A stretch of 63,687 bases of DNA, counting the filler, from Dehalococcoidia bacterium (GTDB lineage: Bacteria; Chloroflexota; Dehalococcoidia; DSTF01; JACRBR01), in NCBI GenBank assembly GCA_041494685.1. It is 3 parts of 3 records of this genome, joined end to end, with 100 filler letters (N's around TTAATTAATTAA, not from the genome) between each part and the next. Parts side by side here need not be neighbours in the genome. Positions count along the whole stretch, not along the records: positions 1 to 24,214 come from JBGQBE010000051.1; 2 more parts are not named here. The stretch is one strand, 5' to 3'. The notes beneath the pieces are model-generated. The model saw only the letters and a program-made list of their open reading frames with translations, ran no database searches and was not told where the DNA came from. The translations under genes and the position numbers were made by a program. Positions 18,640-35,959 of the stretch are shown one piece after another; positions within the stretch are counted from its first letter, which is position 1, and each line of letters opens with the position of its first letter.

Positions 18640-19539
18640 TCAAGACACGGCGGCGAGCCAGCCGGCGGCCAGGATCGCAGCGCCAATGCCGAGGAGGCCG
18701 AAGCCGAACTGCAGCGCGCCACCGTCCCGGCGCAGCGCATAGGCCGCCATGCTGAGGGCAAGGCACGCCGCACCAAACGCCGCCGCCGGCGCGTAGATCG
18801 CCGCGTCGTAGCGGACGAGCGGCACGATCGCCGCGCTGAGCGCGAGGGCGGCGCCGAACGACGCCCAGCTGGCGATCATCGACCCGCGCGCTCCGAGGCG
18901 ATGCGCGAGGCCGCGCACGCCGTGCGCCGCGTCGGCATCGATGTCAGGGAGCGTGTTGGCGAGGTGCAGCGCCAGGCCGATCAGCGCGCCGAGCGGCAGC
19001 AGCCACCAGAGCGCGTCCCGCCACACGCCCAGCACGGTCCACACCCATAGCGGCAGCACAGGGATCGCGATCATGTACGGCACCGCGCTGAAGACGGAGC
19101 GCTTGAGGCGCACGTCGTACGCGAGGCCGCAGGCCATCCCGAGCATCGCCAGCGCGAAGCCCCCCGCACCGAGCGTCGCCGCGACGAGCGCGGCCGCCGT
19201 CACCAGCGCACACGCGGCGGCGAGCGCGACGCGTGGGGCGATGAAGCCGGCGGCGATCGGCTTCCACGGCTTCGCCGCCGCGTCGAGCGCGCGGTCGCAG
19301 TAGTCGTTCGCCACACCGATCGCCGACTGCGCAAGCAGCATCACGAGCAGCATGCGGCCCAGCAGGGACGCATCGGGCATGCCGCGCGCTGCGACGCACG
19401 ACAGCGCCGCGGTCGCAGTGACGTTCAGCAGCGTCGGGAACGGGTGCACGATGCGGGCAGCGCGCAGCCAGCGCGCAGCGCCGTGCGGAGCGGGCGCGCG
19501 CGGCGGTGCGACCGGAAGCGTCAGGATGGGGGTCCGCAT
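18640..19539 (-). CDS. UbiA family prenyltransferase
   Basis: NDYCDRALD..AKPWKPI, NTLPDIDAD..GV aspartate-rich motifs; polytopic. Confidence 0.85.
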   Translation of the reverse strand: MRTPILTLPVAPPRAPAPHGAARWLRAARIVHPFPTLLNVTATAALSCVAARGMPDASLLGRMLLVMLLAQSAIGVANDYCDRALDAAAKPWKPIAAGFIAPRVALAAACALVTAAALVAATLGAGGFALAMLGMACGLAYDVRLKRSVFSAVPYMIAIPVLPLWVWTVLGVWRDALWWLLPLGALIGLALHLANTLPDIDADAAHGVRGLAHRLGARGSMIASWASFGAALALSAAIVPLVRYDAAIYAPAAAFGAACLALSMAAYALRRDGGALQFGFGLLGIGAAILAAGWLAAVS

Positions 19540-19642
19540 GCGCCGTCTCCCGCGGTACTCTCGCTGATCATACTCCTCCGCGGCGCGCGTGGATGTCGCA
19601 TGTCGGTACCGTCACAACCGCGCCAAGTAGACGGACGGCATC

Positions 19643-19671
19643 TTGACACACTACGGATTCCGCAATATGGT
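19643..19671 (+). promoter_or_regulatory. Sigma-70-type promoter
   Basis: TTGACA-N17-TATGGT. Confidence 0.75.
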
Positions 19672-19732
19672 GGATCGGTCCGGACGTGTTCCGGGCCCAT
19701 GAGCGACTCCGTAGTGATAAGGAGGTCTTCTC

Positions 19733-19774
19733 ATGAACAACCGCATCCGGTGGGGTATCTGGCAGGTCGACTGA
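19733..19774 (+). CDS. Putative 13-aa leader/micropeptide MNNRIRWGIWQVD
   Basis: SD TAAGGAGGT 6 nt before ATG, downstream of a consensus promoter. Confidence 0.55.
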   Translation: MNNRIRWGIWQVD

Positions 19775-19927
19775 CTAGCCCTGTTCCCGTGGGGCAGGGC
19801 GCGCCGACCAGGCAGGCTCCACACAGTCTGTGGGCATCGGGACGCCAATTTGAGCGCTTTTCCCAACCATGACGGAGGTTACCCGTTCTGGAGCCTGCTG
19901 GAGATCCCGGTTCAAATATCCGTACGT

Positions 19928-19959
19928 GAAAAGGCTTTCCGAAGCGGAGAGCCTTTTTC
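19928..19959 (+). terminator. Intrinsic terminator (possibly bidirectional) just before pyrE-like gene
   Basis: GAAAAGGCTTTCCG-AAG-CGGAGAGCCTTTTTC. Confidence 0.75.
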
Positions 19960-19973
19960 CATGCGCGTGACTG

Positions 19974-20624
19974 ATGCCTGAAGACCTGACCAGCCAGTCC
20001 AACCTGTGGCTCGCTGACACGCTCTGGCGCCTGGGTGCCGTGCAGTTCGGCGACTTCACGCTCGGACGCACCACCGTCAACTCCCCGATTCACGTCAACC
20101 TGCGCCTGCTCATCGCGCATCCCACCGCGCTCGCGCGCGCCGCGCACATCGTGCTGCAGGAGGTGCAGACGCTCCAGTCGATGCGCCACCCGCAGGTGGA
20201 CCCGTTCGACCTGGTATGCGGCGTCCCGTTCGGCGGGCTGGTCGTCGCGGAGGCGTTCTCGCTGACCTCGAAGATCCCGCTGATCTACCCGCACCCGCAC
20301 ACCGACGACCTGGAGTCGGACGTGGAGGGGCTGTATCACCCCAGCCAGACGGCGCTGATCATGGACGACCTGATCACCGGCGGCGGCAGCATCATCGTCG
20401 CGGCGAACCGGCTGCGCGACGAAGGACTCTTCGTGCGCGACGCGGTCGTCCTGTTCGACCGACAGTCGGGCGGCCACGCGAAACTGGAAGAGCACGGGAT
20501 CCGGCTTGTGTCGGTGCTGACGTTGGAAGTGCTGCTCACCTACCTGCGGTCGAGCGGCAAGATCGGCGACGACTGGTACCGGAAGAGCATGGCGTTCTTC
20601 GAGGCGCACCGCCCGCGCGACTGA
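19974..20624 (+). CDS. Orotate phosphoribosyltransferase-like PRTase
   Basis: VQFGDFTL, SPIHVNLR, GVPFGG, MDDLITGGGS, VLFDR. Confidence 0.8.
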   Translation: MPEDLTSQSNLWLADTLWRLGAVQFGDFTLGRTTVNSPIHVNLRLLIAHPTALARAAHIVLQEVQTLQSMRHPQVDPFDLVCGVPFGGLVVAEAFSLTSKIPLIYPHPHTDDLESDVEGLYHPSQTALIMDDLITGGGSIIVAANRLRDEGLFVRDAVVLFDRQSGGHAKLEEHGIRLVSVLTLEVLLTYLRSSGKIGDDWYRKSMAFFEAHRPRD

Positions 20625-20640
20625 ATCGCCGGCCGCGCTG

Positions 20641-20856
20641 CTACAACAGGCGGCGGATCGGCTTACGGCCCGGGCGCGGGTCGTAGTTCGACTTGAACAT
20701 CTCGAGCTTGTCGCGCTCGATGAGGTACTTCCCCGCAAAGAGGACGGCAGGGACTTTCTTCTGCTTGATCAGCCGGCGCAGGCTCTGGGGATGGATGTTG
20801 AGAAGCCGCGCCGCCTCGACGAGGTCCAGATAATTCTCGAACGGGCTCGTGACCAT
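20641..20856 (-). CDS. Small excisionase-like HTH DNA-binding protein
   Basis: YLDLVEAARLLNIHPQSLRRLIKQKKVPA...GKYLI. Confidence 0.8.
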   Translation of the reverse strand: MVTSPFENYLDLVEAARLLNIHPQSLRRLIKQKKVPAVLFAGKYLIERDKLEMFKSNYDPRPGRKPIRRLL

Positions 20857-35671: not shown

Positions 35672-35752
35672 GGTCGGCGGCCCGGCTTTCCGCCTGCCTG
35701 GCGGACCCGTGGCTTTGCGTCCTCGCCTCGCGGCGAGTTTGCCCGTTCGTAA
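35672..35752 (-). promoter_or_regulatory. c-di-GMP-I (GEMM) riboswitch
   Basis: GGGCAAACTCGCC-GCGA-GGCGAGGACGCAAAGCCACGGGTC...AGCCGGGCCGCCGA matches the class I consensus. Confidence 0.9.
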
Positions 35753-35959
35753 CCTCTGGACGAACTCACTCCGCCCTCCTGGCCGCGCCTCGTCCACCGC
35801 ATCGTGCAGTACGCTCGACAACCCATAACGCGGCTCATCGCCGTTTGTTACAGGTCCGGACGGGAGAATTTCCGACCCTCCCGCCACAACGAGCCACACC
35901 GGCCACAATTTGTGATGTCAACAACACTGGAAAAACACGCGCCCAGGATGCATACTCTG

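Follow-up and report, generated by a model that had tools for sequence, protein, structure and literature searches.

A candidate stand-alone small RNA gene with a conserved 13-codon reading frame and a covarying RNA domain upstream of an OPRT-type gene in a Dehalococcoidia bacterium

The DNA analysed here, referred to as the window, is a stretch of 63,687 nucleotides from the genome of a Dehalococcoidia bacterium (Chloroflexota; assembly GCA_041494685.1), and all positions are counted along its full length. Between a divergent UbiA-family gene (18640-19539, minus strand) and a gene for a type I phosphoribosyltransferase (PRTase; 19974-20624, plus strand) of the orotate phosphoribosyltransferase (OPRT, pyrE) type, the intergenic stretch holds the whole of a compact unit, which combines a promoter, a small open reading frame (sORF) of 13 codons, a structured RNA part and an intrinsic terminator. 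The original prediction had listed the promoter, a Shine-Dalgarno sequence (SD) inside a CATGAG...CTCATG stem, the 13-codon frame and a terminator before an SD-less PRTase gene, all of which are indeed present, and had offered two explanations, a ribosome-coupled attenuator or a stand-alone dual-function small RNA (sRNA) of about 280 nt.

The unit, which lies entirely on the plus strand, begins with a sigma-70-type promoter at 19643-19671 (TTGACA-17-TATGGT, 10/12 matches). This is the sole promoter-like site in 19400-20200, where 0.1 would be expected from shuffles, and its TTGACA and TATCGT/TATGGT elements are kept in the aligned relatives. The transcript would start at about 19679-19683 with a predicted 5'-terminal hairpin, H1 (19678-19696), at whose position the relatives also show a hairpin, of different sequence (GCCCG..CGGGC and others). 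Next comes hairpin H2 (19698-19735), in which CAUGAG (19698-19703) pairs with CUCAUG (19730-19735), enclosing the SD TAAGGAGGT (19718-19726) and pairing the start codon, whose AUG has a pairing probability of 1.00 in the predicted fold of the window. The sORF, MNNRIRWGIWQVD followed by UGA, occupies 19733-19774. Hairpin P0 (GCCCTGTTCC/GGGGCAGGGC, 19778-19800) begins 6 nt past its Asp codon and is followed by a multi-helix domain (19811-19899), composed of the closing helix P1 (19811-19820/19890-19899), a variable stretch, and the hairpins P3 (19839-19864) and P4 (19872-19886, loop GGUUA), both enclosed by P1. P1 is the perfect 10-bp helix seen in the original prediction, whose coordinates for it were one base off. 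A 28-nt linker (19900-19927), in which no conserved structure was found, leads to the terminator (19928-19958), a 14-bp hairpin with U5 that a simple terminator scan missed and RNAfold predicts. The PRTase gene, with its ATG at 19974, 14-15 nt past the terminator, and an in-frame TGA at 19968-19970, has neither an SD nor a recognisable promoter of its own. Overall, the whole-transcript fold beats 200 of 200 shuffles (z = -3.27). Within the close group the start-codon helix and the terminator vary little in sequence; H2 shows 91.4% of cells paired in 30 sequences, with scant covariation, and the terminator hairpin recurs in all 30 aligned relatives (92.7% of cells paired).

Conservation of the sORF was analysed in 80 loci gathered through the PRTase protein, all but four distant ones of which are named as Chloroflexota or Dehalococcoidia metagenome-assembled genomes (MAGs). 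Blastn aligns the upstream region in 30 of these loci, and the sORF is present in 39, namely all 32 loci with 69-92% PRTase identity, five at 54-58% (L034, L035, L039, L044 and L045) and two with variant peptides, L052 ending in RRWQVDR and L042 reading ...WGVLQTDR.... In L039 (a complete-chromosome MAG) the sORF, at about position 2800 of the locus, has a one-base deletion in the GGGG run of its Trp-Gly codons, which could be a homopolymer assembly error or the mark of a dead copy. The coding test was based on 38 PRTase-anchored loci, not chosen for the peptide, which provide 34 distinct sequences. In codons 4-13 these differ from the consensus by 75 synonymous and 19 non-synonymous changes, six of the latter coming from the outlier L052 and the remainder being mostly Ile/Val/Met exchanges. 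W10, Q11, V12 and D13 are invariant in 34/34, Arg4 is encoded by both CGN and AGR, and an in-frame stop is found at codon 14 or 15 in every sequence, though the 6-7 nt spacer before P0 has room for only two codons. The data show that the 13-codon frame is under purifying selection at the amino-acid level, with ...R-I-R-W-G-[VI]-W-Q-V-D as the conserved core of the peptide.

It is the C-terminal decapeptide that is conserved; the N-terminal part varies in length, the first Trp being preceded by 5 to 14 residues. The distant PRTase-linked group keeps the peptide and the architecture although nearly all of the RNA sequence has been replaced, with an SD helix CACCC/GGGUG that covers the 3' part of the SD, a P0 made of GCCUCGUCGG/CCGACGAGGC and a P1 made of CCGAGUUCUGC/GCAGAAUCGG. 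A hairpin within the ORF, predicted by RNAalifold, was considered as an RNA-level cause of the conservation and rejected, since it is disrupted where Arg4 is AGG or AGA; hence, RNA pairing is not the explanation. The description of the frame as a Trp-containing leader holds in that the Trp codons are conserved and the unit is, topologically, a leader of pyrE here, but conservation extends over the whole decapeptide and not the Trp codons only, suggesting a role specific to the peptide instead of Trp-codon sensing. Pfam and NCBIfam gave no matches for six extended sORFs, and none of the predicted proteins of 25-83 residues, the length range to which the search was limited, contains the motif.

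Concerning the RNA, a covariance model comprising P0, P1, P3 and P4 (R1) recovers the window, all 32 close loci and L052 (E = 5.7e-4), as well as, more weakly, L035 (E = 0.015), and it matches 72 of 100 family loci examined. In the R1 alignment of these 72 loci, which was fitted to R1 itself, 89.0% of cells pair (79.5% when partners are shuffled) and two-sided changes occur in 24 of 31 pairs. Its covariation score of 0.305 was reached by none of 500 shuffles (0.152); slid partners give 0.04-0.08. P0 contributes nine pairs with 97.7% of cells paired, four of them with two-sided changes; P3 is the most variable helix and covaries strongly, and the stem of P4 covaries around a loop that is conserved, as are the junction nucleotides. 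The start of P0 is placed 6 or 7 nt past the Asp codon in 85 of 100 listed distinct members, with a median stem of 9 bp. The P0/P1/P3/P4 part is thus a real, covarying RNA structure and, together with the invariant core of the peptide, it bears out the original prediction as regards the conservation of both frame and structure.

A degenerate DNA pattern for WG[VI]WQVD matched at least 120 metagenome stretches and six viral-contig stretches. Strict membership, which called for an SD, a start in frame no more than 25 codons away and, a few nt past the Asp codon, a hairpin with a stem of 6 bp or longer, applies to 68 of the 126 listed pattern stretches; six more were accepted by eye, and the rest are chance matches in long ORFs. 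Pooling genome and metagenome sequences, the family has at least 100 distinct members. Among 100 listed ones the stop follows directly after Asp in 32, after one codon in 53 and later in 15. All 32 of the direct stops are UGA; those after one intervening codon are UAA in 25, UGA in 17 and UAG in 11. A phage or mobile origin was considered and rejected, as only one of the six viral-contig matches is a true member, on a 2-kb contig. The contigs of the members L097 and L158 have 46-48% GC.

The family is not tied to the PRTase gene. Among the listed pattern members about 46 have a PRTase behind them, and about 13 have 700 nt of downstream sequence and no PRTase. The Asp codon and the terminator are mostly 146-168 nt apart, whether the member is linked or unlinked (65 sequences with a rule-detected terminator), and R1 also scores unlinked members (L111, L122, L186 and L187). 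In one genome (G345, locus L213) the unit is flanked by a 441-residue ORF and, in convergent orientation, a family-2 glycosyltransferase gene, and the PRTase orthologue (61% identity) is found on a separate contig, behind a different, short leader of its own. The pattern matched once per genome in four of five genomes searched, and the exact 21-nt pattern, a strict one that would miss variants, occurs in 3 of 401 genomes sampled across the phylum, G345 among them. Hence, the unit constitutes a small gene in its own right, equipped with promoter and intrinsic terminator, whether or not a PRTase lies behind it.

Sequences from RNA libraries give a consistent hint, not proof, that the unit is transcribed as an abundant, discrete RNA. 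Five runs share a small part of the words of 19600-20700, and four of them, from four studies, were compared as contigs. Each has one short contig lying wholly inside the unit, of 230 nt on 19692-19921, 234 nt on 19693-19919, 222 nt on 19690-19910, and 156 nt on 19692-19833 plus nine extra 5' letters, all 93-97% alike to the window. The 5' ends fall at 19690-19693 and the three longer contigs end within the linker, at 19910-19921, although contigs cannot prove RNA ends. Inside the ORF the differences are CGG to AGA (Arg kept), GTC to GTT (Val kept) and ATC to GTC (Ile to Val). For pyrE no comparable contig was found in the four runs. The second explanation of the original prediction, a stand-alone dual-function sRNA of about 280 nt, is therefore supported, given the recurrence of the unit with its own promoter and terminator but no PRTase, the separate loci in G345 and the RNA contigs confined to the unit.

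As already suspected from the sequence alone, the unit corresponds to no known riboswitch, T-box or PyrR site. An Rfam 15 scan of the whole window at gathering thresholds gave no match on the unit, to 6S RNA or any other family, only a tRNA and a c-di-GMP-I riboswitch, both elsewhere; the latter aptamer, at 35673-35753 on the minus strand, scores 60.1 bits against a gathering score of 35. At E values up to 10 over 19500-20100 there are two chance-level matches on the minus strand and nothing meaningful, 20 related loci gave 0 Rfam matches, and a tRNA-like or tmRNA-like domain is not supported by ARAGORN (0 matches). No description of the unit, the motif WGVWQVD included, was found in the part of the literature covered. 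With no match in Rfam, Pfam or NCBIfam, it constitutes an undescribed RNA/peptide family.

The gene behind the unit is of the OPRT type, and all six PDB matches of its protein are OPRTs or UMP synthase (best 2wns_A, an OPRT, E = 3.7e-33). Its scores fall below the NCBIfam OPRT cutoffs (PRK13809, 139.5 bits versus 208; TIGR00336, 53.3 versus 106.8), and in three of three relatives' genomes searched there is a second OPRT-like gene with a higher TIGR00336 score. For these two reasons 'OPRT-type paralogue' is the safe name for the gene behind the unit. In one relative the second gene (G001:C1:3149914-3150435; L085 5870-6502) reaches 92 bits with TIGR00336, still under the cutoff, and sits between genes for a NaMN adenylyltransferase and a GH1 beta-glucosidase. 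In the inspected PRTase loci that lack the sORF, the upstream part consists only of a promoter and a ~75-nt leader, ending in a terminator-like hairpin with the same CTCTTTCGTT tail; seven of them (L036, L037, L041, L046, L047, L051 and L054) show a TTGACA-17-TATCGT promoter and GGCC-rich alternative hairpins within this leader, which is possibly a peptide-free attenuator of the same PRTase gene. On the other side, convergent to the PRTase gene, the window codes for a 71-residue excisionase-family helix-turn-helix (HTH) protein (20641-20856, minus strand). Identities of 84-100% in some 50 of the 80 PRTase loci make it much more conserved than the PRTase, and it adjoins the PRTase gene even where the sORF-RNA is missing; it looks like a core small DNA-binding protein and not a mobile-element excisionase.

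Several known systems resemble the unit in part. Dual-function sRNAs, such as SgrS/SgrT, RNAIII/hld and SR1/SR1P, combine a released peptide product with an RNA part that base-pairs with targets. The unit has in common with them its own promoter and terminator, the short translated frame joined to structured RNA, and a length of a few hundred bases; with its RNA contigs confined to the same borders, it behaves as an independent transcription unit of that size. It differs in having its ORF at the extreme 5' end, a buried ribosome-binding site (RBS) and a hairpin at ribosome-entry distance. In the microcin C operon, ribosome-controlled termination takes place behind the 7-codon ORF mccA, whose peptide is the substrate of the downstream enzymes. 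There, too, a terminator behind a tiny ORF yields a short, abundant transcript and lets little read-through reach an enzyme gene, but mccA has no structured domain of ~150 nt, and nothing ties the OPRT of the unit to peptide modification.

The closest likeness concerns PepNL, a ribosome arrest peptide of 14 residues encoded upstream of pepN in E. coli. It ends in Ile13-Asp14-UGA and blocks RF2 while tRNA-Asp occupies the P site; its authors predicted stem-loops around the pepNL stop codon, and name Ile3, Leu4, Ile8 and Tyr9 as its hairpin-forming residues (Ando et al. 2025, PMC11890864). Both ORFs are very short (13 codons here, 14 there), lie upstream of a metabolic gene and end in a beta-branched aliphatic residue, Asp and UGA, Val12-Asp13-UGA in the window. 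Across the family the stop directly after Asp is shared by the 32 listed members mentioned above; many others place another codon between Asp and the stop, or lack a stop nearby, which sets them apart from PepNL. PepNL is described neither as having a conserved RNA domain and terminator behind it nor as a stand-alone RNA. The comparison covers only some PepNL residues, by description, and sets an arrest shown for PepNL beside one that we infer here.

Our reading of the unit, which we hold with about even confidence, is a stand-alone sRNA gene of ~280 nt with translated and structured parts, whose mini-ORF arrests the ribosome and which in this clade also serves, through read-through, as a leader of pyrE. 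The mini-ORF would be a ribosome-arrest, or parking, module in which the ribosome pauses at Asp13 with peptidyl-tRNA-Asp in the P site and with UGA, or one further codon and then a stop, in the A site. The first base pair of P0 would then lie ~10-11 nt from the first base of the P-site Asp codon, which is the distance at which mRNA enters the ribosome. A pause at Asp13 is suggested by these three elements in combination, namely the conserved decapeptide nearest the peptidyl-transferase centre, the stop in or right after the A site and P0 at the mRNA entrance. The nascent chain ...WG[VI]WQVD may hinder release or peptide transfer, as PepNL does, and H2 could re-form behind the ribosome, its buried RBS limiting loading to rare, single ribosomes. 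The paused ribosome would set the stability or the folding of the RNA domain downstream, possibly also as a sensor, and the domain may have a function of its own, in trans or through protein binding. As the OPRT gene lacks a promoter and an SD of its own, its expression is expected from read-through transcripts; transcription past the unit's terminator is probably still required for pyrE in this clade, and if OPRT were made from such transcripts only, the unit would set a low, possibly translation-dependent, pyrE level, for which the U-rich tail just before the AUG of pyrE might act as an SD-independent loading site.

A number of observations weigh against this reading. The likeness to PepNL is limited to the length, the last two residues and UGA, so that the arrest is an analogy, and translation may be rare given that the start codon is buried in H2. 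The stop comes one variable codon after Asp in 53 of the 100 listed members, and in 15 the frame runs at least two codons past Asp, in some through P0 for 10-29 codons; one termination-arrest geometry thus does not fit all. The members found by pattern were chosen by the peptide motif, leaving the 38 PRTase-anchored loci as the only unbiased coding sample, and the RNA-library contigs could in principle stem from contaminating DNA. Finally, conservation of the PRTase adjacency across 54-92% PRTase identity suggests a link in cis, which the reading covers only as read-through.

Leader-peptide attenuators, like trpL, pyrL/pyrBI and rph-pyrE of E. coli, share with the unit the short ORF and then a terminator just before a biosynthetic gene, and pyrE is a classical attenuated gene. 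That the unit works in the same way, translation of or stalling at its two Trp codons re-pairing the RNA and deciding on the terminator, now appears unlikely, and the ribosome-coupled attenuator of the original prediction, which relied on alternative pairings, is not supported in the form given. Attenuation would agree with a short ORF upstream of the gene that carries the coding signature, an SD and an in-frame stop, with the terminator placed just ahead of a gene devoid of SD and promoter, and with the adjacency of sORF-RNA and PRTase in several diverged groups; attenuation of the PRTase gene also seems general, since the sORF-less relatives have a terminator-like leader as well. In the minimum free energy (MFE) fold of the window, moreover, the 3' half of the ORF does pair with the 3' strand of P1, as predicted for 19894-19908. 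However, this pairing, which is possible in close relatives because the ORF and the 5' strand of P1 resemble each other, is gone in the distant PRTase-linked group, and the alternative pairings proposed for 19852-19862, including that with the left arm of the terminator, involve a stretch that is not conserved in relatives. The best partner of the terminator 5' arm reaches -11.5 kcal/mol in the window, versus -10.9 when shuffled, and its place is scattered among 34 sequences (SD region, spacer, P3, P1). A search of these 34 members for an antiterminator anywhere upstream found none beyond the shuffled level, nor do they show antiterminator and terminator hairpins that exclude each other and whose first segment is overlapped by the ORF. 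The unit further differs from such leaders in lacking a chain of mutually exclusive hairpins, in an ORF that ends ~155 nt upstream of the terminator and in the conservation of the peptide itself and not of a codon run alone; and it stands alone in other genomes, so it is not always placed before a regulated operon. Read-through of the stop, which could bring ribosomes to the PRTase start, was also considered and rejected, the next in-frame stop coming after 9 to 284 codons, scattered over the 38 loci. In the window the sORF frame is open for 68 codons past UGA (19775-19981, plus strand), up to a stop that overlaps the PRTase start (ATGCCTGA); the open frame recurs in L024 but not in most relatives.

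With no conserved partner for the terminator arm, and with the ORF/P1 pairing not family-wide, a riboswitch expression platform is as little supported as a classical attenuator. We therefore regard as very improbable a leader in which a ligand or regulatory protein bound by the P1/P3/P4 junction controls the terminator, with the ORF as an accessory. Such an element would admittedly show what is seen here, namely a long helix closing a conserved junction ahead of a terminator and a metabolic gene, and conserved nucleotides in the P4 loop and the junction. Pairing between the P1 3' strand and the terminator does not exceed chance, the stand-alone copies sit before convergent genes, and Rfam recognises no family in the unit or in the 20 relatives. 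It is somewhat less improbable, and yet doubtful, that the released 13-residue peptide is the product, acting on an enzyme or as a signal, and that the structured RNA is a stabilising 3' untranslated region (UTR). The strong amino-acid-level conservation, the strong SD and the abundant, discrete RNA suggested by the contigs would fit a peptide product. Nevertheless, the later stops in 15 of the 100 listed members would add 10-29 unconserved residues to it, its N-terminal length is variable, the gene-caller proteins of the range searched lack the motif, the fixed spacing of 6-7 nt between Asp codon and P0 would be meaningless for a free peptide, and a covarying domain of ~90 nt exceeds the need of a stabiliser.

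Returning to the arrest reading, the unit combines known kinds, the dual-function sRNA and the arrest-peptide leader, with a fair probability that their combination forms a separate kind. A bolder version, which we put forward tentatively and consider rather less likely than the arrest reading itself, is a new kind of RNA, an abundant structured sRNA that loads and parks one ribosome by means of a buried RBS, an arrest peptide acting with UGA or a slow codon in the A site, and an entrance hairpin, the ribosome acting as a sensor (e.g. of RF2 or Trp-tRNA activity, as for PepNL and TnaC) that would govern the stability or activity of the RNA and, in this clade, read-through into pyrE.

Arrest peptides and dual-function sRNAs are each represented by a handful of cases from model organisms, and here a family of at least 100 natural variants seems to combine both. 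These variants are a ready-made mutational series on how a 13-residue peptide acts inside the ribosome, and for experiments the family offers an invariant WQVD core, a hairpin at fixed distance, a covarying domain and hints of expression in environmental RNA libraries. Even if arrest were disproved, an undescribed, expressed and structured RNA family would be left. For this uncultivated Chloroflexota lineage, an OPRT gene without an RBS behind a strong terminator raises a question of pyrimidine control, namely how the gene is expressed.

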